Shown: positions 3,003-59,207 of the stretch, one piece after another
How the letters are laid out: the number at the start of each line of letters is the position of its first letter
How positions within the stretch are numbered: position 1 is the stretch's first letter
Assembly: GCA_963746175.1 (NCBI GenBank)
Contig: CAVVAH010000001.1
Location: forward strand, 1,158,062-1,222,061
Direction of reading: 5' to 3'
Origin: an uncultured Actinomycetota bacterium
GTDB lineage: Bacteria > Actinomycetota > Actinomycetes > JACCUZ01
Length of the DNA: 64,000 nt
Notes under the pieces: generated by a model
What the model was told of the DNA's origin: nothing
The model's input: the letters and a program-made list of their open reading frames with translations, nothing else
Databases searched by the model: none
Position numbers and translations under genes: made by a program

Positions 3003-3788
3003 TCAGCGCGCCGACCCGGCGATCTCGCGAGCCCGCGACAGCGAGACGTCACCCTCCAGGCGCAGCGTGGTGCGCGCCCGGTGCTCCCAGATCAGGGTGT
3101 GGCCGGCCAGTCGCGCGGTGCCCGTGCGCGGGGTGCCGTCCCGGTCCAGCCACACCACCTCGTGCGGCGCGGCGAACCAGAGGGCGAAGTCGCCGCCGAC
3201 CTCGGTGAACTGCACCCCGGCGGCCGACTTCGCGAACGTGTAGTCCAGCCGACCGTCGAACTCGTCGAGCCGCAGCGCGCCGTCCGGGCCGGTCCAGGTC
3301 ATGGACAGCACGCGCCGGTCGTCCGAGACCTCCACGTCGTCCGGGTGCCCGAGCGCCCGGGGCACGACGGGCTCGAAGGCCACCAGCCGCCGTGCCTGTG
3401 CCAGGGTCGTCCCCCCGTCGGCCGGCGGCGGCGCGGGTGCCGTCGACGCGGCCGGGCCGGCGCCGCGGTGCACCAGCACACCGGCGAAGCCGAACCAGTC
3501 GGCCACGGCGGCACGCACCGGTGGCGCAGCGGCGAGCCCGACGAGAACGGCCAGACCGACGGCGGCCACCGCCCGGCGGCGACCGGCGAGGCGGTCGCGG
3601 AGCCCGCCGGTGGCGCGGGCCCGGCTCGGAGCTGCCCGGCCCGGAACCGGCATCAGCGCGACCTCGTCCCGGACCCGGGTCGCGAGGGCCGGTCCAGGCG
3701 CCGTCACGGGCACGGTCCGCCCCAGCGCCAGCAGGTCCTCCACCAGCGCGACGTACGGCGCCGGCGAGGATGCTCGGGTCTCAGGCAC
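3003..3788 (-). CDS. anti-sigma factor (single-pass membrane protein with a DUF4367-like extracytoplasmic domain)
   Basis: ORF 3003..3788, overlapping the sigma stop by 8 nt. It has an N-terminal cytoplasmic segment, a TM helix (AVAAVGLAVLVGLAAAPPV) and a C-terminal domain of the type paired with ECF sigmas. Confidence 0.7.
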   Translation of the reverse strand: MPETRASSPAPYVALVEDLLALGRTVPVTAPGPALATRVRDEVALMPVPGRAAPSRARATGGLRDRLAGRRRAVAAVGLAVLVGLAAAPPVRAAVADWFGFAGVLVHRGAGPAASTAPAPPPADGGTTLAQARRLVAFEPVVPRALGHPDDVEVSDDRRVLSMTWTGPDGALRLDEFDGRLDYTFAKSAAGVQFTEVGGDFALWFAAPHEVVWLDRDGTPRTGTARLAGHTLIWEHRARTTLRLEGDVSLSRAREIAGSAR

Positions 3789-4290
3789 GGCGCGCCTCCG
3801 TCCCGACGGGCGCCGCCCAGGGCTCGGCGGCCAGCCGGGCCAGCGCGCGGTGCAACCGGGACTTCACCGTGCCGCGCGGCCAGCCCAGCGCGGCCGCGGT
3901 CTCGGCCTCGTCGAGGTCCAGCAGGTAGCGGAAGGTCACGACCCGCCGCTGGTCGTCCGGCAGCCTGGACAGAGCACGAACCAGGTCGGCCGTGCGCTCG
4001 GCGGACAACGCGGCCGAGGCGGGGTCGTCGGTGGCCGCCGCGAGCAGCAACGGCTCCGCCAGCGCCCACGCGGAGCGCTCCCGAGCGCGCCGGCGACCGG
4101 CGGAACGGTGCAGGTTGCTGGTCTCGTTCGCGACGATGCGCAGCAGCCACGGGCGGAACGGGGCGCCGTCGCGGAACCGTCCGAGCGCGCCGTACGCCTT
4201 CACGAAAGCCTCCTGCACCACGTCCTCCGCGTCCGACCCGGCACCGAGAAGGGCCGCGGCCCGCACGGCCACGGGGGCGTGGCGACGCAC
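3781..4290 (-). CDS. ECF-type RNA polymerase sigma factor. Minimal coordinates are from the first canonical start (GTG 4290); the conserved N-terminal region continues upstream to 4431 with no ATG/GTG/TTG.
   Basis: Region 2 (DAEDVVQEAFVKAY...RPWLLRIVANE) and region 4 (DQRRVVTFRYLLDLDEAETAAALGWPRGTVKSRLHRALARL) motifs are present. Upstream in the same frame are 47 sense codons reading ...ISVEPEDSEVLARARGGDADAYAELV, which look like sigma region 1.2/2.1. They reach back to the TGA of the preceding kinase gene. Confidence 0.8.
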   Translation of the reverse strand: MRRHAPVAVRAAALLGAGSDAEDVVQEAFVKAYGALGRFRDGAPFRPWLLRIVANETSNLHRSAGRRRARERSAWALAEPLLLAAATDDPASAALSAERTADLVRALSRLPDDQRRVVTFRYLLDLDEAETAAALGWPRGTVKSRLHRALARLAAEPWAAPVGTEARRA

Positions 4291-4431
4291 CAGCTCGGCG
4301 TACGCGTCGGCATCGCCGCCGCGGGCGCGGGCCAGGACCTCGCTGTCCTCAGGCTCGACGCTGATGGGCTCCTCCGGGGGCTGCCCTACGTCTACACCGC
4401 GGACGACGGTGGCGTTCCCGGCTCCGGGAGA

Positions 4432-4854
4432 TCAGCCCGGCGCAGGGACCGGCTCCCCCGCCCGCACCGAGACGTCGGGTGCAGCCGCGGAGACGACGCA
4501 CCAGACCTCCTTGCCGCCGTCGGGGAGCCGGTCGACGCCCCACTCGGCGGCGAGCCGGTCGACCAGTGCGATACCGCGTCCGTCGGTGCGCTCGAGCCCG
4601 GCGTCGACCAGGGTGGGACCTCCCGGGCCGCGGTCGGCGACGGCGACACGTACACCGTCGGGGAGCAGTGCCAGCACCAGGGTGATCGTCCCCGCGCCGT
4701 GCCTGACCGCGTTGGCCACCAGCTCGCTCACGACGAGCTCGACGTCACCGACGACGTCGGCACCGCGGGAGCGGCACACGTCCCGGACCTGGCGACGCGC
4801 CGCAGCCGCCGCATCGGGACGTCGTCGCAGCGTGCGGACGACGGAGCTGGTCAC
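4432..4854 (-). CDS. HATPase_c anti-sigma regulatory factor / Ser-Thr protein kinase (RsbW-like), 140 aa
   Basis: ORF 4432..4854. Motifs ELVANAVRHG, DRGPGG and GRGIALVD match GHKL ATPase N-, G1- and G2-boxes typical of RsbW/SpoIIAB-type kinases. Confidence 0.75.
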   Translation of the reverse strand: MTSSVVRTLRRRPDAAAAARRQVRDVCRSRGADVVGDVELVVSELVANAVRHGAGTITLVLALLPDGVRVAVADRGPGGPTLVDAGLERTDGRGIALVDRLAAEWGVDRLPDGGKEVWCVVSAAAPDVSVRAGEPVPAPG

Positions 4855-4947
4855 GGATGCCTCACCTGGAGGAGCGAAGGGCGTCCACCGGGTCCGGGGC
4901 GAGACGAAGGTCAGCGGTCAGCGGCTCTGTGCCCGCTCCGGCGAAAA

Positions 4948-5694
4948 CTACTCCCCGCTTGGTCGACCGGGCACGCTGTCGAGGTCGAGGTCGCGGGCCA
5001 CGACCTGGCGGGCGACCTCGGAGAGCGGCAGCCCGTGGCTCCGGGCGAAGCCACGCAGCAGCTGGAAGGCGGCGTCGACGTGCACGCCGGCGCGCTCCGC
5101 GAGCACGCCCTTGGCCTGCTCGATGACGATGCGGCTGCTCAGCGCCTCCTGGAGCTGCCGGGCCAGCAGCTCGCGCCGGCTGCTGCCCCGTTCCTGGAGG
5201 ATGCCGATCGTCGCGACGTCGGCCAGGGCCTGCGCCAGCGACCGGTCCTCCTCGACCAACGCTCCCGGCTCGGCCCGGAACAGGTTCAGCGCGCCGATCG
5301 TCTCGCTCCGCAGCCTCAGCGGCAGTGCGACCACCGAGCGGAACCCCGCTGCCGTCGCCTCGGCCCCGAACCGCGGCCACGTCGGTGGCTGGTCGGCGGC
5401 CAGGTCGTCGACGACCACCGGCTCACCGCTGGCGTAGCAGTCGAGGCAGGGCCCCTCGTCGTTCTGCACCTCGAAGAGCTCGAGCAGCCGAACCTGCTCG
5501 GTCGAGCTCGCGGCGACGACCAGCCGTCCCGAGCCGTCGGCCAGCATCAGCCCGGCCTCGTCCACGTCGAGCAGGGCGATGCAGTGCGTCGCGAGCGAGT
5601 GCAGGAAGTCGAGGACGTCGAAGTCGTCGACGAGCGTGTCCGCCAGATCGACGAACGCTTCGGCGAGCCGCTCCTCGCGCAAGCCTCCCGACAT
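4948..5694 (-). CDS. GAF-ANTAR RNA-binding regulator, 248 aa
   Basis: C-terminal 248 codons of ORF 4948..6948 from the ATG at 5694, with a GGAGGA Shine-Dalgarno sequence upstream. A GAF domain (LALPLRLRSETIGALNLFR) precedes an ANTAR domain (LQEALSSRIVIEQAKGVLAERAGVHVDAAFQLLRGFARSHG). Confidence 0.8.
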   Translation of the reverse strand: MSGGLREERLAEAFVDLADTLVDDFDVLDFLHSLATHCIALLDVDEAGLMLADGSGRLVVAASSTEQVRLLELFEVQNDEGPCLDCYASGEPVVVDDLAADQPPTWPRFGAEATAAGFRSVVALPLRLRSETIGALNLFRAEPGALVEEDRSLAQALADVATIGILQERGSSRRELLARQLQEALSSRIVIEQAKGVLAERAGVHVDAAFQLLRGFARSHGLPLSEVARQVVARDLDLDSVPGRPSGE

Positions 5695-5723
5695 GCCACC
5701 ACGATAATCCTCCGCCACACCCT

Positions 5724-6431
5724 TCACACCTCCTCGCCGTCCAGCCTCGTCCGACGGGCCAGCACCTCGCGGGCGACCTCCTGCAGGGTGCGGCCCTCCT
5801 GGTAGGCGCGCCCGCGCAGCGCCGCGAAGGCCGCGGTCCCGTCCACTTCCAGCTGCACCATCACCATGCCGGTGGCCTGGTGCACGACGCTCGTCGCGGC
5901 CCAGCCCGGCTCGAGGATCTCGCGGACGGCCTCCGGGACGGCGTTCTGCAGCTGCAGCAGCACCTCGACGGCCGCCGTAGCGTAGTCCTCGGCCTCGGCG
6001 AGCTCGGCGTCCGTGAGGTCGCCGGGGTCGCGCCGGTAGAGGTCCATCGCGCCGAGCCTCAGCCGTCCGACCGTCAGCGGCAGGGCGAACGACGCCCGGA
6101 CGCCCAGCGTGGTGGCCTCGGGCACGAAGACGGGCCACCGGTCGGCGATTTCCGGGCCCGTGATGTCTGCGACGAGCACCGGCGCACCGGTGCTCACCGC
6201 GTCGACGCACGGACCCTGTCCGAGCAGCACCTGGAGGTCCTCGATCCGGCCGCTCACCACATCGGTCGCCGCCACCCGCGTGTGCCGCCCGGGGCCGGCC
6301 GTGACAGAGAGGCCTACGCCGTCGACCCGCAGGGAGCCGGCCGCCAGGGCGCACACGTGCGCGACGCGTGCGGTGCCCTCGGCTGCCAGCTCGGCCGAGC
6401 GGACGGTCTGGAGGACCCGCGTGCTCGACAT
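5724..6431 (-). CDS. GAF-ANTAR RNA-binding regulator (paralog), 235 aa
   Basis: ORF 5724..6458 with the start taken at ATG 6431 (MSSTRVLQTV...). It has the same GAF + ANTAR architecture (MVMVQLEVDGTAAFAALRGRAYQEGRTLQEVA). Confidence 0.75.
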   Translation of the reverse strand: MSSTRVLQTVRSAELAAEGTARVAHVCALAAGSLRVDGVGLSVTAGPGRHTRVAATDVVSGRIEDLQVLLGQGPCVDAVSTGAPVLVADITGPEIADRWPVFVPEATTLGVRASFALPLTVGRLRLGAMDLYRRDPGDLTDAELAEAEDYATAAVEVLLQLQNAVPEAVREILEPGWAATSVVHQATGMVMVQLEVDGTAAFAALRGRAYQEGRTLQEVAREVLARRTRLDGEEV

Positions 6432-9513: not shown

Positions 9514-10626
9514 TCAGCCGGTCACCCGCGAGACCGCACCGGGCCCGAACACCGGTCCGGTCACGTAGATGGTGCCGTCGGCGCCGAGGTCCACACCTCC
9601 GGGCAGCACCAGCTGTCCGGCGGCGAGCTCCTGGACGCTGGTGTCCGGACGGATCCGGAACAGACCGCCGATCGGCGGGTCGACCAGGCCGAGCTCCCAC
9701 TGCAGCCAGCTCCGATGAACCAGCTCGACGACGTAGATGCTGCCGTCCGCGCCGGCCCCGAGGTCCACGATGGAGGTGAACCCGTCCTTGTAGACCCGGC
9801 ACGAGCCGGTGTCCGGGTGCTCGTGGTCGCAGAGCGCGTTCACCGAGCCCGGCGCGATGCGCCACACCGACGAGGTCCCCGGCGTCGCCGGGAACCCGCG
9901 CAGCTCGCCGACGTAGTAGTAGCCGTCAGCACCGACCGTGACGGAGGTCGCGACGTCCTCGGCCGGCAGCAGGGTGCCCGCCGGCGGGAGCGGCTCGTGG
10001 GTCTCGGGGTCCACGTCCGGGAGCTCAGCCGGGACGGCGACGACCCGCGGCTTGAGCCGGGCGACCGTGACGATCCGGCCGCTGCCCGGGGAGACCCGCA
10101 GGAGGTCGTTCGCCGCCGCGTCGGACACGAGCACGGTCCGGTCGGGGAGCACGGTGACGCCGAAGGGGTTCGACTCCCCCGGTGGGTCCGCCAGGTTGAA
10201 CGGGTCCGGGTCGGTGAGCTGGTAGGCGCCGATGTCGGCGACCACGAGCGCCTTCCCGTCCTTCAGCCGGTAGAGCGTGGCGGCTCCGGTACCCGGCGCG
10301 CCACCGGGCGTCAGCACGTAGATCCGACCACGCGGCCCGAACGCCACGGCAGCAGTGACGAAGCCGGCCGGGACCTGGCCGACCTTCCTGGTGGTGACGT
10401 GGTCGCCGACCTGCTTGGCGACCGTCACCGAGCCGTCGGCCTCGGCGTAGACGATCCGCCCGTCGGCCCCGACATCCAGGCCGCGCGGCCCATTTAGGCC
10501 GGAGACCACCGGGGTCACCACCCCTGGCGCGGCCTCGGCCGGCACCCCCGACATCGCCGCGGTGACTGCCGCCACCCCCAAAGCCACCAGAAGGATCCTC
10601 GGTACCCGCCTGCTCGTCAGAGCCAT
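9514..10626 (-). CDS. ScyD/ScyE-family secreted beta-propeller protein
   Basis: ORF 9514..10695 with the start taken at ATG 10626 (MALTSRRVPRILLVALGVAAVTAAMSGVPAEA, signal peptide). Repeated GADG/IYV blade motifs (DVGADGRIVY, VGADGYYYVG, GAGADGSIYVV, LGADGTIYVTG) match ScyD/ScyE-like proteins. Confidence 0.65.
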   Translation of the reverse strand: MALTSRRVPRILLVALGVAAVTAAMSGVPAEAAPGVVTPVVSGLNGPRGLDVGADGRIVYAEADGSVTVAKQVGDHVTTRKVGQVPAGFVTAAVAFGPRGRIYVLTPGGAPGTGAATLYRLKDGKALVVADIGAYQLTDPDPFNLADPPGESNPFGVTVLPDRTVLVSDAAANDLLRVSPGSGRIVTVARLKPRVVAVPAELPDVDPETHEPLPPAGTLLPAEDVATSVTVGADGYYYVGELRGFPATPGTSSVWRIAPGSVNALCDHEHPDTGSCRVYKDGFTSIVDLGAGADGSIYVVELVHRSWLQWELGLVDPPIGGLFRIRPDTSVQELAAGQLVLPGGVDLGADGTIYVTGPVFGPGAVSRVTG

Positions 10627-10724
10627 GCCGAACCTCCCCAGGCGCACGCCTCCCCTGCGAGGCGACCTCGCGGCGCGCGCTTGCCACTTGAGCACCGGGT
10701 GCCCGCACTGTCAACGGCTGTCGG

Positions 10725-11011: not shown

Positions 11012-11311
11012 ATGCGTACCAAGGCCACCTTCCTCGCCGGCTTCGCCGCCGGCTACGTGCTCGGCGCCCGCGCCGGCCGAGCCCGCTACGAGCAGATCCG
11101 CGAGGCCGCCCGGTCCTTCATGGCCAACCCCGCCGTGCAGTCGACGACCTCGTCGCTGCAGCACCAGGCCGGGGAAGCCCTCTCGACGGCCAAGGACAAG
11201 GCGGCCGGCAGGATCGGCGACCGGCTCGGCGACAAGGCGCCGGCGTGGCTCGGCTCGGGGCACGAGCACAGCACCGACGGGGCGGGTGGCCCCAACGGCC
11301 ACCAGGCCTGA
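11012..11311 (+). CDS. small conserved hypothetical protein (99 aa)
   Basis: ATG at 11012 inside ORF 10868..11311 (MRTKATFLAGFAAGYVLGARAGRARYEQIREAARSF...). The listed ORF start lies inside the tRNA-Asn gene and is therefore not real. Confidence 0.5.
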   Translation: MRTKATFLAGFAAGYVLGARAGRARYEQIREAARSFMANPAVQSTTSSLQHQAGEALSTAKDKAAGRIGDRLGDKAPAWLGSGHEHSTDGAGGPNGHQA

Positions 11312-11340
11312 CCGGGCTGACCGAGGGACGGGGGCCGCGG

Positions 11341-12420
11341 GTGGCCAGGTTGCGCCGCGTCGACTGCGCGGCGCCGGGCATCGCCCGGGTGAAGCGCGGC
11401 CGGGGCTTCTCCTACCGCAACGCTGACGGCAGCACCGTCACCGATCCCGTCGTCCTCGAGCGCATCGCCGGCCTGGTGCTCCCGCCCGCCTGGACCGACG
11501 TCTGGATCTGCACGCACCCTCGCGGGCACATCCAGGCTGTCGGCACCGACGCGGCCGGACGACGGCAGTACCGCTACCACGACGAGTGGCGGCTGCAGCG
11601 CGACGCCGAGAAGCATGAGCGGGTGCTGCTGTTCGCCCGGCGCCTCCCGGCCGCGCGGGAGCAGGTCGACGAGCACCTGGGCCAGCGAGGGCTCACGAAG
11701 CAGCGGGTGCTGGCCGCCGCCTTCCGGCTGCTCGACCTCGGCTTCTTCCGGATCGGCGGCGAGTCGTACGCCGAGGAGAACGGCTCGTTCGGGCTGGCCA
11801 CCATGCGTCGTCGGCACGTCACGGTCACCGGCGACCTGGTGGTCTTCGACTACACCGCCAAGAGCGGCAAGCAGCGGGTGCAGGGCGTCGTCGACGAGAG
11901 CGTGCGCAAGGTGGTGCGGTCCCTGCTCGAGAGGGACGACCCCAGCAAGGAGCTGCTCGCCTACAAGGACCGCACGGGCTGGCACGACGTCACGACCGCC
12001 GACATCAATGCCTACCTCCGGGAGGTCGTCGGCGACGAGGTGAGCGCGAAGGACTTCCGCACCTGGCACGCGACCGTGCTGATGGCGGTCGGGCTCGCCG
12101 TGTCGACGAACGCGCCGACGTCGGAGAGCGCGCGCAAGCGAGCCGTGAGCCGCGCGGTGACCGAGGTGTCGCACTACCTCGGCAACACCCCGGCCGTGTG
12201 CCGGTCGTCGTACATCGACCCGCGCATCATCGACCTCTACGACGACGGCACCACCATCGCGACGGCCTTGGAGCGGCTGGGGGCCGGGGCCGCCTTCGGG
12301 CAGCCGGCGACCCACGGGCAGATCGAGGCGGCCGTCCTGCGGCTGCTGCGCCGGCCTGCGACCGCGGCCCGCCGTCGTAGGCCGACCAGCCCGGCGTCCC
12401 CGAAGCAGAAGGCGGCCTAG
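11341..12420 (+). CDS. DNA topoisomerase IB (bacterial poxvirus-type topoisomerase I)
   Basis: ORF 11245..12420 with the start taken at GTG 11341 (VARLRRVDCAAPGIARVKRGRGFSYRN...). It has the TopIB signature, including the FRTWHATV region and the C-terminal catalytic block SRAVTEVSHYLGNTPAVCRSSYIDPR. Confidence 0.8.
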   Translation: MARLRRVDCAAPGIARVKRGRGFSYRNADGSTVTDPVVLERIAGLVLPPAWTDVWICTHPRGHIQAVGTDAAGRRQYRYHDEWRLQRDAEKHERVLLFARRLPAAREQVDEHLGQRGLTKQRVLAAAFRLLDLGFFRIGGESYAEENGSFGLATMRRRHVTVTGDLVVFDYTAKSGKQRVQGVVDESVRKVVRSLLERDDPSKELLAYKDRTGWHDVTTADINAYLREVVGDEVSAKDFRTWHATVLMAVGLAVSTNAPTSESARKRAVSRAVTEVSHYLGNTPAVCRSSYIDPRIIDLYDDGTTIATALERLGAGAAFGQPATHGQIEAAVLRLLRRPATAARRRRPTSPASPKQKAA

Positions 12421-44995: not shown

Positions 44996-45057
44996 CCCGT
45001 GATTCTCCCAGCCTGGCTGACCTGCTCTTACCTCGCCCGGGCGGTCGCGCACGTCGG

Positions 45058-45152
45058 CCGCCGTCGTGGCACTTCGGACGTCTCCCGCCGTCGTGGCACT
45101 TCGGACGTCTCCCGCCGTCGTGGCACCTTTCCACGTGTCGCGCCGTCGTGGC
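45058..45152. repeat. tandem direct repeat array of a 27-bp unit CCGCCGTCGTGGCACTTCGGACGTCTC (two full and two partial copies), upstream of dus
   Basis: Copies are at 45058-45084, 45085-45111, 45112-45126 (partial) and 45141-45152 (partial). It is non-coding in any sensible frame. Confidence 0.7.
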
Positions 45153-45239
45153 CGAGGTCAGAGCGGCGTTGGACGGACGGAGCGCGTGCCCTCTCGGCTG
45201 CCGTTGCCGGCTGGCTCGCCGTCCACGGTTTCTGGTGAA

Positions 45240-45284
45240 GTGGCCCCGCCAAGGGGGCGCTTTCCGGGGCTCCAGCGGGGCCAC
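45240..45284. other. GC-rich hairpin (10-bp perfect stem GTGGCCCCGC / GCGGGGCCAC, 25-nt loop) in the dus / PQQ-dehydrogenase intergenic region
   Basis: Seen directly at 45240-45249 and 45275-45284. It may be the terminator for the upstream minus-strand operon. Confidence 0.35.
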
Positions 45285-45507
45285 TTCGCTCGGATCACCA
45301 CTCGGACGGGATCCGATCAGACGGTGGGACATCCGCGGCTCTACCCCAGGTTCGAGCCGGCTTGCCAACATCGGAGGTCACGCCACGCGTGCGACTTGCC
45401 CCAACTGACTCCGATGTCGCGAAAGCCACGAGATCGGGAGAGCGACGGACGGCGGGCAGGCGTCTCCTCCTCCGAAGCCGCTCTGACGATCACCCGGCCC
45501 CGAGAGA

Positions 45508-46584
45508 TCAGGGCAGGGCGACCCGGATCACCTTGTCGTCGCCCGGCCCGGGGTTCGCCCGGCCGTCGCGGTTGGAGGTGGTGATCCAGAGCGAGCCGTC
45601 CGGCGCGGCCATCACCTGGCGGATCCGGCCGAAGCGGCCCGCGAGGTGCTTGCGCTTCTTCCCGGAGTCCGGGCCACGCAGCCGCACCGAGAACAGGCAC
45701 TCGCCCTGCAGCGCACCGAGCCAGGCGCGTCCGTTGGCGACCGCGACACCGGCCGGCGAGCAGGTCGAGGTCGGCGACCACTGGGCCAGCGGGTCGCGGT
45801 AGCCGCCGGCGCCGTCGGCCCCCTCGACGTACGGCCAGCCGTAGTTCGCGCCGCGCACGATCATGTTGAGCTCGTCGCTCTCCTTCTCGCCGAACTCGCT
45901 GGCCCACAGCTGTCCGCGCCGGTCGAAGGTGATGCCCTCGACGTTGCGGTGGCCCATCGACCAGGTGTGGTTGCCGAACGGGTTGTCCGACGGCACTCCG
46001 CCGGCCGGTGTGAGGCGCAGGATCTTGCCGCCGAGCGAGCTCCTGCTCTGCGCCCGCGAGCTCACCTCCCCGTCGCCGGTGCTGGCGTAGAGGAGACCGT
46101 CCGGCCCGAACACGAGCCCGCCGCCGTTGTGGTGCAGGTTCATCGGGATCCCGGCCAGCACGACCGTCCGCGTGCCCAGCGCGCCACCCGCGTAGGTGAA
46201 CCGCACGATCCGGTTGTCGCTGCGGGTCGAGAGATAGGCGTAGACCAGCCGGTTGGACGCGAAGTCGGGGTGCAGAGCCAGCCCGAGCAGACCGCTCTCG
46301 CCCGCGTTGCCCACCTGGCTGTGCGCCTCGAGGTGACCCACCCGGTGCCGGCCGCCGCCGCGCTTGACCACGTGGACGTCACCGCTGTCCCGCTCACCGA
46401 CGAGAGCGTTGCCGCTGGGCAGGAAGGCCATCCCCCACGGGACACCGAGACCGTGGGCGAGCGTCCGGTCGACCCGCGGCGCCGCCTGGGCCGGCCCGGT
46501 GCCGGCGACGCCCGTGCCGAGGGCGGCACCACCCGCTGTGGCGAGCCCGGCCTTGAGCAGCGTGCGACGGTCGAAGCGGGTCAT
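45508..46584 (-). CDS. PQQ-dependent soluble sugar / aldose dehydrogenase (sorbosone-dehydrogenase family) with a Tat signal
   Basis: C-terminal 359 codons of ORF 45508..47553 from ATG 46584 (MTRFDRRTLLKAGLATAGGAALG, twin-arginine signal). It has beta-propeller sugar-dehydrogenase motifs (HNGGGLVFGPDGLLY; NYGWP). Confidence 0.85.
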   Translation of the reverse strand: MTRFDRRTLLKAGLATAGGAALGTGVAGTGPAQAAPRVDRTLAHGLGVPWGMAFLPSGNALVGERDSGDVHVVKRGGGRHRVGHLEAHSQVGNAGESGLLGLALHPDFASNRLVYAYLSTRSDNRIVRFTYAGGALGTRTVVLAGIPMNLHHNGGGLVFGPDGLLYASTGDGEVSSRAQSRSSLGGKILRLTPAGGVPSDNPFGNHTWSMGHRNVEGITFDRRGQLWASEFGEKESDELNMIVRGANYGWPYVEGADGAGGYRDPLAQWSPTSTCSPAGVAVANGRAWLGALQGECLFSVRLRGPDSGKKRKHLAGRFGRIRQVMAAPDGSLWITTSNRDGRANPGPGDDKVIRVALP

Positions 46585-46595
46585 GTCTGGTCCTC

Positions 46596-47546
46596 TCAGC
46601 GGCAGAGCGCGGTGGGGCGCTCGACGACCTTGGTGCGGTGGATCCGGAGCGCGCGCACCGACGAGTTGTTGTCGTTGTCGGACTCGACGAGCTGGTCGAT
46701 CGGGTCGACGACCGTCTCCAGGCAGTACAGACCGTCCGGCAGGTCGTCGGGCAGCCGCAGCGCCTGACCGGCGAGGAAGCTCTGGTAGATGTCCATCCAG
46801 CCGACCGAGATCCCCTGCGGGCTCCGCTTGGTGCACGAGCCGTACGCGAGGTCGAAGCCGAACTCGCCGTACCGCGCAGGGACGCGGGCGGTGTCCCGGA
46901 GGCAGAAGCTCACCTTGCGCCGCGCCGACACGACGACGCCCTCGGTCTGGCCCTCCGCCACCGGCGTCCGCAGCGTGTAGCGCGCCGAGGCCTTGAAGTG
47001 CCAGTGGTGGTGCAGCGGGTGGTAGACCATGCAGCCGGCCCGGTGCCGGACGAGTCGGGTGTCCTTCTTCAGGTTGTAGCGGCCGTTGGCATTGCGGTCG
47101 ACGTAGATGATCTGCGTCGAGTTGTGCTGGCCCTCGGGGCACGGCTGAAGGTTGTTGGGCCGCACCTCGATCGGCCCGGCCCCGATGTTGCCGAGCGACG
47201 ACGAGAAGCGCAGCCGGCGGCCGTCCTTGCGCTCCTGGAGCGACAGCTGGTTGGCGGGCAGCGCGATCAGGTCCGGCAGCAGCCCGGGGACCGGCGGTGT
47301 CGTCGTCGTCGGGGTGGGCGTCGGCGTCGGTGTCGGCGTCGGTGTCGGAGTCGGAGTCGGAGTCGGAGTCTCTGTCGGAGTCTCCGTCGGAGTCTCGGTC
47401 GGAGTCACCGTCGGCGAGGAGGTCACACCCGCCGGACGGGTCGGGCCGTTGCCCGCGCCCTGGGCCGGGATCGCCCCGACCAGCACGGCCACCACCAGGG
47501 CACCGGCGGCCGCCAGCCCGCCTCGTGCGACGTTCGCCCCGAGCAT
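46596..47546 (-). CDS. secreted lysyl-oxidase-like (LOX-family copper amine oxidase) protein with a Pro/Thr-rich linker
   Basis: ORF 46596..47546. It has a signal peptide, then a (TPTE)n(TP)n linker. The C-terminal domain matches the animal LOX catalytic core: copper site HPLHHHWH; RRKVSFCLRDT versus GHKASFCLEDT, which carries the LTQ lysine; GWMDIYQSF versus CQWIDITD, which carries the LTQ tyrosine; and ESDNDNNSSVRAL versus ESDYTNNVVRC. Confidence 0.7.
   Translation of the reverse strand: MLGANVARGGLAAAGALVVAVLVGAIPAQGAGNGPTRPAGVTSSPTVTPTETPTETPTETPTPTPTPTPTPTPTPTPTPTTTTPPVPGLLPDLIALPANQLSLQERKDGRRLRFSSSLGNIGAGPIEVRPNNLQPCPEGQHNSTQIIYVDRNANGRYNLKKDTRLVRHRAGCMVYHPLHHHWHFKASARYTLRTPVAEGQTEGVVVSARRKVSFCLRDTARVPARYGEFGFDLAYGSCTKRSPQGISVGWMDIYQSFLAGQALRLPDDLPDGLYCLETVVDPIDQLVESDNDNNSSVRALRIHRTKVVERPTALCR
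47290..47400. repeat. hexanucleotide microsatellite-like run (GTCGGN)n that encodes the (TPTE)n/(TP)n linker of the LOX-like protein
   Basis: ggcgtcggcgtcggtgtcggcgtcggtgtcggagtcggagtcggagtcggagtc... is seen directly in the sequence. Confidence 0.6.
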
Positions 47547-47773
47547 CCGTCAACTCACCCGCTTTGCCTGATCTGCGGCTTCTGGTGCGCGGACCCTAAC
47601 GAACGAACCTGGCAGGAACGCCGGGGCACGCCGGGCGGGCCACGACGTGGAACCGGACCGTGACCTCGCGAGTGCCCGGCCGGCTGACCCGCCGCTGGGC
47701 AACCTGTGAGCGGCGTAAGAGGTAGGCACCGGTACCCGTGCGTGGGCGGCTCTCCTGCCGGGCCCGTCGTCGA

Positions 47774-47788
47774 CCGACCGGCGGTCGG
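47774..47788. promoter_or_regulatory. 15-bp palindrome CCGACCG-G-CGGTCGG between the response-regulator gene and the LOX operon. It is either a terminator stem or an operator.
   Basis: Seen directly, 19 nt after the response-regulator stop codon. Confidence 0.3.
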
Positions 47789-47806
47789 CGGGTGGGCGGT
47801 GGACAG

Positions 47807-48412
47807 TCAGAGCCAGCCGCGCTCCTCGGCGATGAGCACCGCCTCGGCCCGGGTCCGGGCACCCGTCTTGCCCATCGCCGACGACAGGTAGTTGCGCACG
47901 GTGCCGTCACTGAGGACGAGCAGCCGGGCGATGTCGGCGACGGTGCCGCCGGAGCGGGCGGCGACGAGCACGTCGCGCTCCCGGCCGGTCAGCGGCGACT
48001 CCCCGCTGGCCAGCGTCTCGGCGGCGAGAGCGGGATCGACGACACGCAGCCCCTGGTGCACCCGGCGGATCGCGTCCGCGAGCTGCGCGGCCGGCGCGTC
48101 CTTGACCAGGAAGCCGGACGCGCCGGCCTCCATCGCCCGCCGGAGGTAGCCCGGCCGTCCGAACGTCGTGACGACGAGCACCCGGCAGCCGGGGAGCGCC
48201 TGGCGCAGCGCGCCGGTCGCGGCGATGCCGTCCAGCCCCGGCATCTCGATGTCCAGCACGGCGACGTCGGGACGCACGTCGCACGCCGTCGGGACCACGA
48301 GGTCGCCGCGCTCGACCTCGGCCACCACGTCGAGGTCGCTCTCCAGGGAGAGCAGCGCGGCCAGGGCGCCGCGGACCAGCGCCTGGTCGTCGGCCAGCAG
48401 GAGACGGATCAT
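47807..48412 (-). CDS. NarL/LuxR-family two-component response regulator
   Basis: ORF 47807..48412. It has a REC domain (LLADDQALVRGAL...VLDIEMPGLDG) and a C-terminal LuxR HTH (LTGRERDVLVAARSGGTVADIARLLVLSDGTVRNYLSSAMGKTG). Confidence 0.9.
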   Translation of the reverse strand: MIRLLLADDQALVRGALAALLSLESDLDVVAEVERGDLVVPTACDVRPDVAVLDIEMPGLDGIAATGALRQALPGCRVLVVTTFGRPGYLRRAMEAGASGFLVKDAPAAQLADAIRRVHQGLRVVDPALAAETLASGESPLTGRERDVLVAARSGGTVADIARLLVLSDGTVRNYLSSAMGKTGARTRAEAVLIAEERGWL

Positions 48413-48419
48413 CGGCCGG

Positions 48420-49619
48420 TCACGCCGGCACCTCGGCGTACAGCCGGAAGCCGCCGTCCTCGACCGGCCCCGCGTCCAGCCGGCCGCCGACCTGGTCCAG
48501 CCGCTCGCGGAGGCCGGTGAGGCCCGAGCCCTCGTGCCCGTTCGGCCCCGGATGGCCGTCGTCGACGATCTCGACGCTGCGCGCGGAGACCGCCACCCGG
48601 ACCCGCTGCGCGTCCGAGTGGCGGATGACGTTCGTGACGCCCTCGCGCAGCACCCAGCCGAACAGCTCGCGCCGCTCCCCGGGCACGTCGTCGACGGCGC
48701 CGGGCAGGTCGGCGACGACGCCGGCTGCGTCCAGGGCCGCTCGCGCCGAGGAGATCTCCGCGGCCAGCGTCACGCCGCGGTAGCCGGCCACGGTCGCGCG
48801 CACGTCGGCCAGCGCCTCCCGCGAGAGCCGCTCGATGTCGGCCACCTCCGCCGCCGCCCGCTGCGGGTCGGCGTCCATGACCCGGCGGGCCAGCTCGGAC
48901 TTGACGGCGATGACCGTGAGGCTGTGGCCCAGCAGGTCGTGCAGGTCGCGGGCGAAGCGGGCCCGCTCCTGCTCGACGGCCAGCGACTTGAGCTCGAGGT
49001 GCGCTTCCGCGAGCGACCGGTTGCGCTTGATGACGCTCGCGAGCCCGAAGACGGCCGCCGACGCGGTGGCGATCGGGAGGTCGATCCAGACCGAGTTCGG
49101 CCACGAGTCGACGAGCAGCTGCAGCACCGGAGCGAGCACCAGCAGGAAGGCGACGACCGCGAGAGCCTCCCGTGTCTCCAGGAGCATGATCGCGATGACG
49201 GCGACGAACACGAAGACGCTGAGCCCGTGCTGCCCGGTGACGGGCAGGATGCTGCACGCGACGCCGAAGGCCCAGAGCACGAACAGGCGACGGCTGCGCG
49301 CGCTGACCCGCGGCGCCATCATCACGGGGACGATGAAGACGTACGCGACGCAGAAGGCGAGCAGGCCGCCGAGAGCGAGGCTGCGCAGCTGCCACGACTG
49401 GTCGGCCTGGACCACGCTGACGAACGAGTCGGCGAGGAACACCAGCCAGATGCCGCTGCCCAGGCGCCAGCGGGCGCTGCGGGGCTGGAAGAAGACGCGC
49501 TCGGCCTCGGACAGGCCGCTGCCGTCGTCGCACTCCTCCGCGCAGTCGGCAGGCCTGGTCAGCAGCCTCGGGAGTCGCACGCCCCGGACGCTAGCCGCCC
49601 TCACGTCAGGCCGCCGCAC
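48420..49619 (-). CDS. sensor histidine kinase (HisKA_3 / NarL-partner type). The N-terminus may be shorter than the listed ORF.
   Basis: ORF 48420..49619. It has TM helices, an H-box (ARDLHDLLGHSLTVIAVKSELA) and a HATPase domain (REGVTNVIRHS...DDGHPGP...GSGLTGLRERL). Confidence 0.85.
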   Translation of the reverse strand: MRRPDVRAASVRGVRLPRLLTRPADCAEECDDGSGLSEAERVFFQPRSARWRLGSGIWLVFLADSFVSVVQADQSWQLRSLALGGLLAFCVAYVFIVPVMMAPRVSARSRRLFVLWAFGVACSILPVTGQHGLSVFVFVAVIAIMLLETREALAVVAFLLVLAPVLQLLVDSWPNSVWIDLPIATASAAVFGLASVIKRNRSLAEAHLELKSLAVEQERARFARDLHDLLGHSLTVIAVKSELARRVMDADPQRAAAEVADIERLSREALADVRATVAGYRGVTLAAEISSARAALDAAGVVADLPGAVDDVPGERRELFGWVLREGVTNVIRHSDAQRVRVAVSARSVEIVDDGHPGPNGHEGSGLTGLRERLDQVGGRLDAGPVEDGGFRLYAEVPA

Positions 49620-49762
49620 GCCGGTGGCGGGACAGCGCCGCGGCCGCGGAGCAGATCATCACGTCTGTCGTCATGACCACGACTCTGCCGTCGTACGCCG
49701 ATGCGTCGGAGTGCGCGACGTCAGGACCTGCCCGTGACAGGTGTCATGGCAGGGTGACCCCC

Positions 49763-50569
49763 ATGAGCGGGACCATCGCGGTGTGCGTCGCCGGGGCGAC
49801 GGGCTGGACCGGACGAGCCGTCGCCGAGGCGGTGCTCGCCGAGGCGGACCTGGACCTGCGCTCGGCCGTGGCTCGCTCGTCAGCGGGTGCCGACCTGGGC
49901 ACCGCCTGGGGTCTCGAGGCCAACGGCGTCCCGGTGGTGGCCGATGCCGGCGACGCGCTCGACGGTGTCGACGTGCTCGTCGACTACACCTCCCACGACG
50001 CCGCGAAGCGGCACGCGCTGACTGCTGTGTCCCACGGGGTGCACGTCGTCATCGGCTCCTCCGGCCTGACGGCCGACGACTTCGCCGAGATCGACAGCGC
50101 TGCCCGCGCCGCCGGCGTCGGTGTCGTCGCCGCCGGCAACTTCTCGCTCACCGCGGCGATGGCGCAGGCCGCGGCGCTGCTGGTGGCGCCGTACCTGCCG
50201 GACCGCGAGGTCCTCGACTACGCGTCGGCCGGCAAGCCGGACGCACCGAGCGGCACCGCCCGTGAGCTGGCCGAGCGGCTCGGCGAGGTGTCGCGGCCGT
50301 CCCTGGTGGTCGCGGTCGCCGACACCGGCGGGCACCCCGAGGCGCGCGGCGCGACCATCGCCGGCACCCAGGTGCACTCGGTGCGCCTGCCGGGATTCGT
50401 GGTCTCCACCGAGGTCGTCTTCGCGCTCCCCGACGAGCGGCTGGTGATCCGGCACGACGCCGGCGGCACACCCGCGCCGTACGTCGCCGGCACGCTGCTC
50501 GCGATCCGGGCTGCGCCGCAGCGCGTCGGCCTCGTCCGCGGCCTCGACTCCCTGCTGCTCGGGGGCTAG
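49763..50569 (+). CDS. dihydrodipicolinate-reductase (DapB) family protein
   Basis: ORF 49673..50569 with the start taken at ATG 49763 (MSGTIAVCVAGATGWTGRAV, Rossmann fold). It has a DapB-like C-terminal domain (HSVRLPGFVVSTEVVF). It may be a paralog rather than the housekeeping dapB. Confidence 0.7.
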   Translation: MSGTIAVCVAGATGWTGRAVAEAVLAEADLDLRSAVARSSAGADLGTAWGLEANGVPVVADAGDALDGVDVLVDYTSHDAAKRHALTAVSHGVHVVIGSSGLTADDFAEIDSAARAAGVGVVAAGNFSLTAAMAQAAALLVAPYLPDREVLDYASAGKPDAPSGTARELAERLGEVSRPSLVVAVADTGGHPEARGATIAGTQVHSVRLPGFVVSTEVVFALPDERLVIRHDAGGTPAPYVAGTLLAIRAAPQRVGLVRGLDSLLLGG

Positions 50570-58233: not shown

Positions 58234-59043
58234 ATGACCGACGACCTGCTCCGGCGTCTCGAGGCCTACTACGACGGCGTGCCGCGCCGGTTCGCGCGCA
58301 CCGAGGAGTGCGGGCCGTTCACGCTGTTCCTCGGTGAGCCCGGCGGCTGGACCTACTACGCCCGCCCGCGGCTCGGGGGTGACGGCCTGTTCACCCCGGA
58401 CGACGTGACGGCGGCGGTGGCCCGGCTCGCCGAGCTCGGTCTGCCGCAGAACGTCGAGTGGGTGCACGAGACGACACCGGCGCTGCTGGACGCCGTCCGG
58501 GCCACCGGGGTGTTCGAGCTCGAGGAGCTGCCGCTGCTCGCCCTCGAGGGGGACCTGACGGTGACGACTCCTCCGTTGCCGGACGACGTGACCGTGCGCC
58601 TGCTCGGCCCCGACGACGCCGACGCGGTCGCCGCATCGCGCGCGGTGAGCGAGGTGGGCTTCGCGGCCGAGGGCACCGCGCGCGGCGGGGCGGGCCCGGC
58701 GGAACGGGATGCTGTGCTGAAGCCTGCCCAGCAGAGGGTGCTCGACCTCCTCGACGAGGGCACCGTCCGGGTGGCCGTCGCCGAGCACGCCGAGCTCGGC
58801 CAGCTGGCCACCGGTCGCACTCTGCCGCTGGCCGGCGTGACGGAGGTGATGGGCGTCGCCACCCTGCCGTCCGCGCGACGGCAGGGTCTCGGCGCCGCTG
58901 TGACCGCCGCCCTCGTCGAGGACGCCCGCCACCTCGGCCTCACCACGGTGTTCCTCACCGCGTCCTCGCCGGAGGTCGCGCGGATCTACGCCGGCATCGG
59001 CTTCCGCCCACTCGGCACCGGGTGGGTGGCGGAGCGCCGTTGA
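58234..59043 (+). CDS. GNAT-family N-acetyltransferase
   Basis: ORF 58234..59043 with an acetyl-CoA-binding motif ([25 protein letters not shown]) in the C-terminal half. Confidence 0.7.
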
Positions 59044-59207
59044 ATCCCCTTCCTACGTGTCCCGCCGTCGTGGGTGCGGCCTAGAGCGGCTTTGGAAGGA
59101 ACGAGGCTGGTCGATGCACCCCGCCGTCGGCTCCTGTCCCGCCGTCCCTGCGCTGTCCCCGTGAGCCCTTCGGTGATCATGCAGTTCTGACTGCTGTGGA
59201 CAGGCGA

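Follow-up and report, generated by a model that had tools for sequence, protein, structure and literature searches.

Four genes lie on the minus strand at positions 45508–49619 of the window, by which we mean the whole 64-kb stretch of DNA that was analysed. A histidine kinase and a response regulator directly precede a gene of the lysyl oxidase (LOX) family, which is followed by a gene for a PQQ-dependent dehydrogenase of the glucose-sorbosone dehydrogenase (GSDH) family; the original prediction had placed all four as we find them.

The LOX-family gene (46596–47546, minus strand, 316 aa) matches the Pfam Lysyl_oxidase model (PF01186) with 42.2 bits (E 9e-11), the cut-off being 20.4 bits, and matches human LOXL2 (5ZE3) in a profile comparison at 1e-7. 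The catalytic domain (residues 89–316, 46599–47282) has a pLDDT of about 90 in the AF2 model, and the sole significant Foldseek match of this model is again LOXL2 5ZE3 (E 1e-8). Domain search and structure prediction thus bear out the family assignment originally made, and all four motifs quoted with it are present: HHHWH (residues 179–183), RRKVSFCLRDT (with K211), GWMDIYQSF (with Y254) and SDNDNN (289–294). The copper ligands H179/H181/H183 (46998–47012), Lys211 (46914–46916) and Tyr254 (46785–46787), the last two forming the LTQ pair, align with the copper histidines and LTQ Lys/Tyr of human LOXL2, which are H626/H628/H630, K653 and Y689 in the numbering of the literature. Together with six cysteines they are invariant across the 46 homologues of alignment A1; alignments A2 and A3 likewise show no change at the histidines, lysine and tyrosine, and keep four and six of the cysteines, respectively. 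Judged by its sequence, the protein is a member of the lysyl oxidase family with intact catalytic residues, and is predicted to be a secreted Cu/LTQ amine oxidase.

By inspection, its N-terminus has the basic n-region, hydrophobic core and A-x-[GSA] site of a signal peptide (residues 1–30, 47457–47546) with predicted cleavage after AQG, and a P-A-x-x-[AS] cleavage site is kept across alignment A1. There follows a Pro/Thr-rich low-complexity linker (residues 31–88, 47283–47456), for which pLDDT is below 50. The (TPTE)n(TP)n character ascribed to it earlier is evident in the translation and also in the DNA, as a 6/18/24-bp periodic repeat at 47301–47416; its length and sequence differ among homologues. 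Contrary to the earlier supposition, bacterial LOX proteins are not rare: homologues form 3414 sequence clusters at 50% identity, and they have been called frequent in actinomycetes (PMC6452851, PMC4448552).

The GSDH gene (45508–46584, minus strand, 358 aa) matches PF07995 over its full length (235.7 bits, E 1e-69), and its best solved relative is PDB 3DAS (7e-84), with 2ISM and 3A9G also matched. The catalytic histidine motif HHNGGG (46117–46134), GHRN (45943–45954) and NYGWP (45832–45846) align with these three Asd structures, and a Tat signal, DRRTLLK, is encoded at 46552–46572, all in keeping with the Tat-exported PQQ dehydrogenase first proposed. Against NCBIfam TIGR03606 the score of 134.8 bits lies under the cut-off of 434.55 bits, so we assign the protein to the short Asd type and not to the Acinetobacter sGDH type. 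No pqq biosynthesis genes were found within the 64-kb window. The GSDH gene does lie directly downstream of LOX, although at a spacing of 11 nt (46585–46595) rather than the 12 originally given, and this junction contains a GAGGA ribosome-binding site. Among relatives the gap ranges from -4 to about +35 nt, and no terminator-like site was found at the junction. The 11-nt gap, and tight spacing in 20 of 21 loci of the clade described below, make it very likely that the pair is an operon, as the suggested co-transcription had implied.

In one monophyletic clade of LOX genes (59–87% identity), 20 of the 21 loci that are informative have a GSDH gene, its Tat motif kept, directly downstream of LOX; once near-identical loci are collapsed, the count is 15 of 16. 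None of 57 LOX loci outside this operon clade (54 informative loci of other clades and three on Streptomyces plasmids) has a GSDH gene nearby. The coupling is not obligate within the operon clade, as locus L043 has LOX but no GSDH, while L114 has an orthologous GSDH (80–82% identical to those of a second genomic context, context 2) but no LOX. The adjacency spans two or three genomic contexts, with varying genes upstream (two-component system, ABC transporter, dapB-like gene, hydrolase, peroxidase) and downstream (Dus, SnoaL, nitroreductase, unrelated genes). At context 2 the neighbours of the GSDH gene are a multicopper oxidase and a haem peroxidase of animal type, and at L027/L042 an animal-type peroxidase adjoins the pair.

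Such a distribution raises the question of whether the two genes are functionally coupled at all, or whether their order was inherited in one shallow lineage and the fusions described next are an unrelated curiosity. The context-1 loci are all from close relatives (neighbouring GlyRS 87–93% identical), and because the operon clade is shallow the adjacency is partly inherited rather than independently selected. Either gene can stand without its partner, as L043 and L114 illustrate, and the majority of both LOX and GSDH genes are stand-alone, among them close GSDH relatives (63–69% identical) situated beside purL. However, the junction has stayed intact while both flanks were repeatedly rearranged, in two to three contexts.

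Natural LOX-GSDH fusions back the originally proposed functional link more strongly than before. Twelve clusters of 589–690-aa proteins carry PF01186 and PF07995 on a single chain; these are 35–87% identical to the query fusion P0208 and come from several sources, one cluster having 60 members. The fusions fall into two divergent subfamilies, and both active sites are invariant, for which chance is a poor explanation; we regard an absence of coupling as distinctly unlikely. The GSDH of the window is 63–76% identical to stand-alone GSDHs as against 35–41% to the fusion halves, the GSDH half of one fusion subfamily is 57–66% identical to a stand-alone Thermoleophilaceae GSDH, and the fusions' LOX halves fall outside the operon clade. 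Since the fusion halves are thus nearest to different stand-alone relatives, the association arose more than once. The genomic context of one fusion gene (L115) revealed no informative partner. Being adjacent in one clade and fused in other bacteria, LOX and GSDH very probably work together.

Upstream of LOX, a promoter-like region (47593–47632, minus strand) comprises GGCGTGCC (47625–47632), a 26-nt spacer and TAGGGT (47593–47598), a -10-like hexamer of the form TAnnnT located 52 nt before the LOX ATG. The pattern GGCGYGCC-N26-TAnnnT recurs at ten related loci with 34–35-nt spacing, with or without the two-component system, and an eleventh (L038) has the hexamer only; this conservation points to a promoter role. 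Beyond it lie the NarL/LuxR-type response regulator (47807–48412, minus strand, 201 aa; Response_reg and GerE), which carries the name DesR in one source, and the membrane histidine kinase (48420–49619, minus strand, 399 aa; HisKA_3 and a weak HATPase_c match). Neither reaches the cut-off of an equivalog model.

The original prediction, taken to its full form, would put the LOX-GSDH pair under two-component control, the system sensing the substrate and driving transcription through a 15-bp palindrome. In the window and five relatives (L020, L021, L031, L033 and L035; regulator orthologues 89–96% identical), the kinase and regulator are indeed encoded immediately 5' of LOX and on its strand, but about half of the otherwise syntenic loci lack the system, namely L001, L018/L019, L022, L034 and L036, and these six retain both LOX-GSDH and the promoter-like motif. 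At L020 the kinase/regulator pair follows ABC_tran and ABC2_membrane genes, and an ABC transporter is the usual partner of a HisKA_3-type kinase. DesKR / YvfTU-type modules have the same domain composition, and L020 shows their ABC_tran-ABC2-kinase-regulator order, whereas the pair in the window has no adjacent transporter genes. The palindrome, CCGACCG-C-CGGTCGG, is present (47774–47788, strand not applicable) but does not stand as a meaningful element: an equally good one occurs in 17–36% of shuffled copies of its intergenic region, and the distal 138 nt that hold it are without a counterpart even in L031, the closest relative. It is probably without meaning. Regulation in this manner seems to us very improbable, and the two-component system, to judge from gene order, is no conserved partner but adjoins the pair by accident, or at most plays an accessory part.

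In the reading that we favour, this uncultured soil actinobacterium carries LOX and GSDH on its core chromosome as a probable two-gene operon, which would have its own promoter, and the two enzymes would be coupled outside the cytoplasm, most likely in sequence. The LOX product would be Sec-secreted, with a disordered Pro/Thr tail between signal peptide and catalytic domain; with its three-His copper site and a Lys/Tyr pair that would self-process into the LTQ quinone, it would oxidise a primary amine (R-CH2-NH2), yielding an aldehyde together with NH3 and H2O2. The GSDH product, of the Asd / soluble glucose-sorbosone dehydrogenase family, would be a six-bladed beta-propeller exported by the Tat route. 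With PQQ and Ca2+ it would oxidise the carbon of a hemiacetal or of a hydrated aldehyde, and it could take the LOX-made aldehyde (or the cyclic hemiacetal or hemiaminal form of that aldehyde) onward, the end product being an acid, lactone or lactam. In this way the cell would gain nitrogen, or detoxify an amine without escape of a reactive aldehyde. Among the GSDH matches, 7CDY, labelled 'glucose dehydrogenase', is one we take to be a sorbosone dehydrogenase that converts a sugar aldehyde to an acid. Characterised GSDH-family enzymes have sugar substrates, and we know of none acting on aldehydes of the allysine or simple aliphatic type. Among LOX enzymes, an archaeal one is active on many primary amines, aminoglycosides included (PMC6452851). 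The putative amine-to-aldehyde-to-acid relay is plausible, and the reading as a whole, from operon to sequential aldehyde oxidation, is offered tentatively, as not far short of probable.

Electrons rather than an aldehyde might pass between the partners, GSDH oxidising a sugar and LOX, with copper and quinone, reoxidising PQQH2 and delivering electrons to O2, so that the pair would be a sugar:O2 oxidoreductase. To our knowledge no physiological electron acceptor is established for Asd/YliI-type enzymes, which leaves room for such a role, and a single-polypeptide fusion fits inter-domain electron flow as well as it fits a substrate relay. At context 2, moreover, GSDH lies beside enzymes of O2/H2O2 redox chemistry. 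However, we know of no LOX-family enzyme that accepts electrons from another cofactor, and the LTQ Lys/Tyr, which serves amine chemistry and would be needless in a simple electron sink, is invariant even in the fusions. Fungal fusions of a PQQ domain to an electron-transfer domain have been described (PMC6881789, PMC4133262). Fungal PQQ (AA12) domains that are joined to a cytochrome domain and feed copper enzymes would be comparable to the pair. We find such electron transfer quite improbable.

The partners could also share a polymer target, LOX making cross-linking aldehydes on Lys or diaminopimelate side chains of surface proteins or peptidoglycan, as in the animal matrix, and the propeller binding or oxidising glycan ends. 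A Pro/Thr tail on a secreted enzyme would be typical of wall-associated actinobacterial proteins, and other bacterial LOX proteins bear polymer-targeting domains (Ig-like, lectin, CBM4_9, CBM96, dockerin), but the LOX of the window has no binding module. The peroxidase at L027/L042 would fit, as animal relatives of this enzyme also cross-link matrix, yet no candidate substrate protein is conserved near LOX-GSDH. Cross-linking of bacterial collagen-like proteins was itself judged unlikely by Grau-Bove et al. (PMC4448552), and we consider a shared polymer target unlikely too.

The sequential relay resembles known systems in part only. With animal LOX and LOXL1–4 the LOX of the window shares the catalytic fold, the His-x-His-x-His copper site, the LTQ Lys/Tyr, secretion and, with LOXL2 5ZE3, a C-terminal ESD..NN motif. 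It is, however, about 22% identical, matches the Pfam model at profile positions 79–195 only, has a signal peptide and Pro/Thr tail instead of propeptide or SRCR domains, and has no collagen or elastin to act on but a dehydrogenase encoded alongside. Prokaryotic LOX proteins with signal peptide and LOX domain, in actinobacteria as here, have been described (Grau-Bove et al. 2015, PMC4448552; PMC6452851), and HTU-LOX of Haloterrigena turkmenica is a proven BAPN-sensitive amine oxidase of broad specificity (Pestov et al. 2019, PMC6452851). An equivalent of human H289, reported absent in bacteria, is invariant here as H176. The papers of 2015 and 2019 are both silent on a PQQ or GSDH partner; while bacterial LOX homologues were already described in 2015, the pairing appears new to the literature and offers a first concrete lead to the role of bacterial lysyl oxidases. 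The Streptomyces plasmid LOX proteins differ in being about 590 aa long, 27–30% identical and without a GSDH neighbour.

The dehydrogenase has the full-length PF07995 domain and conserved motifs of the Asd / soluble PQQ GSDH family (3DAS, 2ISM, 3A9G, 2G8S, 1C9U, 7CDY), and differs in its Tat signal and in being encoded with LOX, or elsewhere fused to a LOX domain. E. coli encodes close together TynA, a periplasmic copper amine oxidase, and FeaB, a phenylacetaldehyde dehydrogenase. By analogy, the LOX-GSDH pair would likewise use an exported copper-quinone amine oxidase to supply an aldehyde to a dedicated dehydrogenase encoded nearby. However, TynA has TPQ and an unrelated fold, and FeaB is a cytoplasmic NAD+ enzyme, whereas LOX and GSDH are both predicted to be extracytoplasmic and GSDH would use PQQ.

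The two genes at the centre of this analysis lie on the - strand of the window, where a lysyl-oxidase-family gene (LOX; 316 aa, 46596-47546) is followed after 11 nt by the gene for a GSDH-family dehydrogenase (GSDH; 358 aa, 45508-46584). The gap carries a GAGGA motif, there is no terminator-like site between the genes, and the open frame of GSDH continues through LOX. Shared strand, short gap and lack of a terminator are the features of a predicted operon; scans for sigma-70 promoters and terminators found nothing, as is to be expected in DNA of 73% G+C.

Related loci were taken from long MAG contigs, one genome match, 80 metagenome contigs and Streptomyces plasmids, their neighbouring genes were scored by tblastn, and a neighbour-joining tree was built from the LOX domains. 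A search of genome contigs with the single LOX protein returned unrelated PT-rich proteins at 16 of 17 loci, because the search patterns derived from the Pro/Thr linker, and only L001 was a true relative. The very diverse 64-sequence alignment A2 had no conserved stretch, and the narrower alignment A3 was used for the metagenome search. GSDH was called present or absent by tblastn, since frameshifted MAG contigs give mis-called genes. These frameshifts (L021, 7640-8100; L022, 7790-8300; L027, 6735-10040) occur in the DNA of the Pro/Thr linker or in adjacent genes, where they split or shorten the called LOX, GSDH and peroxidase genes, and probably stem from misassembly of repetitive, G+C-rich DNA.

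Within one monophyletic LOX clade (59–87% identical to the window LOX), GSDH lies directly 3' of LOX in 20 of 21 informative loci, or 15 of 16 when near-identical loci are collapsed, with -4 to about +35 nt between the LOX stop and the start codon of the Tat protein. The genomic setting of the pair is of at least two kinds (two to three contexts). The first, which includes the window, has the order GlyRS-APH-[variable]-LOX-GSDH-[SnoaL]-Dus, with other downstream genes in the variant L034. In the second, the upstream genes are ABC/ABC2/unknown genes or a divergent animal-type haem peroxidase, and nitroreductase, GH15 and multicopper oxidase genes follow downstream. The LOX-GSDH junction thus stays constant while its flanks change repeatedly, which points to co-conservation beyond shared ancestry, although the pairing is not universal. 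No GSDH adjoins LOX in 54 informative loci of other LOX clades (identity ≤57%), nor in three Streptomyces loci, so that the predicted co-conservation holds within one clade (20/21) and fails elsewhere (0/57). The link is not obligate, as LOX is followed by a GNAT gene in L043, while L114, which is close to the context-2 loci (GSDH 80–82% and GH15 82–83% identical), has peroxidase and GSDH genes without LOX; GSDHs 63–69% identical to that of the window are stand-alone genes adjoining purL.

The neighbours of LOX in the other clades are mutually unrelated (a pyridoxal-kinase-like gene, a coiled-coil protein, GNATs, an MFS transporter), and the sole recurrent one is a 210-aa membrane protein of one sister clade (50–56% identity). 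This multi-pass protein, which has no Pfam match, is encoded 3' of LOX on the same strand after a gap of 8–105 nt (L026, 2208-2840; L028, 4600-5232; L030, L048, L051, L055 and L057); L026 and L028 also have CsbD and MerR genes upstream. In L104 (1-2062), from a genome related to that of the window (Dus 77%, APH 73% identical), the slot between APH and Dus is occupied by a LOX from another clade (45% identity), encoded on the opposite strand without GSDH, so that two LOX lineages share one chromosomal slot. An animal-type haem peroxidase gene (PF03098, E 2e-17) divergently adjoins GSDH in L114 (5240-10088), and LOX-GSDH in L027 (6735-7778 and 13197-13421) and L042; with the nearby multicopper oxidase and GH15 genes it makes up a cluster of extracytoplasmic oxidative enzymes. 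In animals, LOX and peroxidasin both cross-link matrix.

The two families are also found joined in a single chain. When long LOX-domain proteins from an exhaustive HMMER search were scanned for additional domains, one of 589 aa (P0208) proved to consist of Lysyl_oxidase followed by GSDH, and a search with this protein gave 12 clusters with both Pfam domains (589–690 aa, 35–87% identical to P0208), whose sources are JGI, ENA and Logan. A single cluster comprises 60 members on 8 contigs, and contigs of 81 and 158 kb carry two clusters. In the alignment of the fusions the halves are separated by a short linker and the second signal peptide is absent; H-x-H-W-H and the Lys and Tyr of the Lys/Tyr-derived quinone cofactor (LTQ) are invariant in the LOX half, as are the catalytic His, the Arg of GHRN and the N..WP motif in the GSDH half. 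Judged by this conservation, the fusions are real and selected proteins in which both predicted active sites are retained.

We considered whether the fusions are simply the operon joined up and rejected this, as their halves are closer to other stand-alone relatives than to the window pair. The LOX halves share 33–38% identity with the window LOX and in the tree fall outside every stand-alone actinobacterial clade sampled, and in one subfamily the GSDH half is 57–66% identical to a stand-alone Thermoleophilaceae GSDH and about 41% to the window GSDH, which itself shares 63–76% identity with stand-alone GSDHs from its lineage. The fusions span two subfamilies. Read most simply, LOX came to be associated with the local Asd-type dehydrogenase on at least two occasions. 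Such repeated association, as operon and as fusion, is classical evidence for joint action of two proteins. A rival explanation, that there is no real coupling between LOX and GSDH, would find support in the loci where either gene occurs without the other; the conserved operon and the independent fusions of both families argue instead that the two work together.

Other bacterial LOX domains are joined to Big_7 (Ig-like), Laminin_G_3, CBM4_9, CBM96 and HYR domains, and further partners are proprotein-convertase P, dockerin, TSP_3 and CARDB (multidomain proteins P0181, P0202, P0237, P0249, P0254, P0268, P0272 and P0281), which suggests polymer- or surface-targeted variants. For the LOX-GSDH pair, too, there is a rival view in which both proteins would act jointly on an envelope polymer.

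The assignment of LOX, originally made from its motifs, proved correct when profile, alignment and structure model were compared. The Pfam Lysyl_oxidase profile (PF01186) matches residues 174–303 with 42.2 bits (cut-off 20.4; E 9e-11), and it matches all but one of the 120 homologues listed. Residues 1–30 resemble a cleavable signal peptide, whose site P-A-x-x-[A/S] is kept among homologues, residues 31–88 are a Pro/Thr tail, disordered in the AF2 model and of variable length among relatives, and residues 89–316 make up the catalytic domain. H176, H179, H181, H183, K211, Y254 and six cysteines are invariant across the 46 homologues of alignment A1 (46–88% identity), and in the wider alignments A2 and A3, down to 32% identity, the histidines, K211, Y254 and at least four of the cysteines are invariant as well. 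H179, H181 and H183 align with the HxHxH copper ligands of human LOXL2, and K211 and Y254 with its LTQ Lys and Tyr. Human LOXL2 (5ZE3) was the sole PDB match of the family profile and also the only significant structural neighbour of the AF2 model, whose catalytic domain has a pLDDT of about 90 (E 1e-8, probability 1.0, 253 columns; next match E 0.06). The protein is thus assigned to the lysyl oxidase family, with a predicted LTQ/copper active site and, in the model, the LOX catalytic fold. The His equivalent to human LOX H289 has been reported as absent from bacterial sequences (PMC4448552); in the window LOX it is present as H176 (47019-47021), and it is invariant in all three alignments, including clades free of fusions.

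GSDH matches PF07995 over its full length (profile positions 3–329 of 332) with 235.7 bits against a cut-off of 25. It is about 50% identical to PDB entry 3DAS (7e-84), titled only 'putative oxidoreductase' in the search output, which we take to be the PQQ-bound aldose sugar dehydrogenase of Streptomyces coelicolor, and 2ISM and 3A9G, too, align with it from end to end. Its motifs HHNGGG (with the catalytic His in HNGG), GHRN and NYGWP each have their counterpart at the aligned position in all three structures, which indicates a putative catalytic His and a PQQ/substrate-binding Arg-Asn; the corresponding residues of Acinetobacter sGDH are His144, Arg228 and Asn229. With 134.8 bits GSDH stays far under the cut-off (434.55) of NCBIfam TIGR03606, the Acinetobacter-type sGDH subfamily, so that it is classified by sequence as the shorter Asd/YliI type. 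The N-terminus (MTRFDRRTLLKAG..AQAAP) is a textbook twin-arginine signal by the motif S/T-R-R-x-F-L-K; the predicted Tat signal, MTRFDRRTLLKAGLATAGGAALGTGVAGTGPAQAAP, has the twin-arginine motif, then a hydrophobic stretch and an A-x-A site, and DRRT[LV]LK is retained in 18 related loci. We know of no established physiological substrate or electron acceptor for the Asd/YliI family. A rival explanation of the pair starts here: the electrons of PQQH2 would pass to the Cu/LTQ site, and LOX-GSDH would be a sugar oxidase.

Upstream of LOX in the window are a response regulator (201 aa, 47807-48412, - strand) and a histidine kinase (399 aa, 48420-49619, - strand) with the expected domains (Response_reg and GerE; HisKA_3), for which an NCBIfam equivalog search gave no match at cut-off. 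The original prediction tied this two-component system to LOX-GSDH. Orthologues (regulator 89–96% identical) precede LOX in the window, L020, L021, L031, L033 and L035, and are missing from L001, L018/L019, L022, L034 and L036, all of which keep LOX-GSDH and the upstream motif. In L020 the kinase and regulator genes come after ABC_tran and ABC2_membrane genes, with which HisKA_3 membrane kinases are usually associated. The motif consists of a TAnnnT hexamer, conserved 28–57 nt before the LOX start codon in aligned upstream regions, and in context 1 of a GGCGYGCC octamer 34–35 nt upstream of it, with or without the two-component system (window, L001, L018, L020–L022, L031, L033–L036); in the window these are TAGGGT (47593-47598, - strand) and GGCGTGCC (47625-47632, - strand). 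As the motif pair is kept in both situations, LOX-GSDH most likely has its own promoter, and octamer and hexamer are possibly this promoter plus a candidate operator for some other regulator. The 15-bp palindrome (47774-47788), taken originally as an element of this spacer, is probably not meaningful. Its arms of only 7 nt kept it out of the results of a repeat search; inspected by eye and by shuffling, it is matched by one as good in 17–36% of shuffles, and it sits in the distal 138 nt of the 260-nt regulator-LOX spacer, for which not even the closest relative (L031) has an equivalent, although the proximal 122 nt are 89% identical there. Since the two-component system is absent from about half of the loci, the motif is kept and the palindrome is at chance level, we conclude from these comparisons that it is a variable neighbour rather than an established regulator of LOX-GSDH, and it should not be presumed to regulate the window pair.

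The window is core chromosome, with dnaG, a principal-type sigma factor, pyruvate phosphate dikinase, glycyl-tRNA synthetase, undecaprenyl-diphosphate synthase, leuA and a peptide ABC transporter, and a G+C content of about 72–76% throughout; the pair in it is an ordinary member of its clade. The annotated genes of the 64-kb window include no pqq genes, copper chaperones or mobile-element genes, and Rfam gave zero matches over 45000-50000, hence no known riboswitch or leader 5' of LOX. The spacer between GSDH and Dus is 455 nt (45053-45507), about 400 nt more than in L020, L021 and L022, where the distance is about 12 nt. It is empty in Rfam, L032 shares part of it at 67% conservation, 66 nt of it are similar to window 59035-59100, and a 27-bp tandem repeat (45051-45152, 3.7 copies, 89% match, unit ACGTCTCCCGCCGTCGTGGCACTTCGG) lies just 5' of the Dus start or overlaps it. 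Elsewhere in the window, a bacterial type IB topoisomerase gene (11245-12420, + strand) combines the eukaryotic Topoisom_I catalytic core with Top1B_N_bact; such genes are uncommon among bacteria. Predicted genes of 834, 393 and 270 aa (3301-5805, +; 9514-10695, -; 2168-2980, -) had no Pfam match at E≤1e-5.

Bacterial LOX homologues were originally called rare, a view that the 3414 clusters at 50% identity from the exhaustive HMMER search (1339 at E≤1e-10) contradict. LOX proteins of bacteria and archaea have been in the literature since 2015 (PMC4448552), LOX has been called frequent in actinomycetes, and an archaeal enzyme, HTU-LOX, has a broad amine specificity that includes aminoglycosides (PMC6452851). 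'Lysyl oxidase family protein' is an NCBI name already in use, and the window gene is a new member of a known family, whose function in prokaryotes is still described as enigmatic. A literature search for LOX together with PQQ or sorbosone dehydrogenase found no mention of the pairing, and the module, an operon here and a fusion elsewhere, appears to be undescribed. The observation itself is confirmed and its original interpretation partly supported; two orphan enzymes become one testable system, for which the fusions offer a ready-made single-chain form for biochemistry, with possible use in amine biosensing or protein cross-linking.

Two enzymes with predicted export and intact active-site residues, tight conserved adjacency and independent fusions make functional coupling of some kind rather probable in our view. 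The complete scheme, which we rate slightly below an even chance, is that LOX would convert an extracellular primary amine to an aldehyde, NH3 and H2O2, and that the PQQ propeller would oxidise this aldehyde further, as such or after cyclisation, to give an acid, lactone or lactam. The chemistry typical of the PQQ propeller family is that a hemiacetal or hydrated aldehyde carbon is oxidised; 7CDY, one of its PDB matches, is presumably a sorbosone dehydrogenase, although the search output labels it only as 'glucose dehydrogenase'. Antibiotic inactivation, suggested by the adjacent APH-family kinase and the aminoglycoside activity of HTU-LOX, was not adopted, because APH belongs to a conserved housekeeping synteny, has no NCBIfam assignment and is absent from context 2.

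More tentatively, and with some doubt, we propose that LOX and the PQQ propeller form an unrecognised extracytoplasmic module with two quinone cofactors, assembled more than once by actinobacteria and catalysing a reaction new to both families. One possibility is full oxidation of amines to carboxylates or lactams outside the cell, with polyamines, lysine or aminoglycoside-type amino sugars as examples of candidate substrates; the other is O2-linked turnover of the PQQ dehydrogenase by electron transfer between the two quinone cofactors. If true, either would for the first time give bacterial lysyl oxidases a physiological role, and the orphan Asd/YliI dehydrogenases would gain a natural partner. 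The logic of an amine oxidase followed by an aldehyde-oxidising enzyme would be like that of TynA/FeaB in E. coli, but here both steps would take place outside the cytoplasm and would employ two different quinone cofactors.
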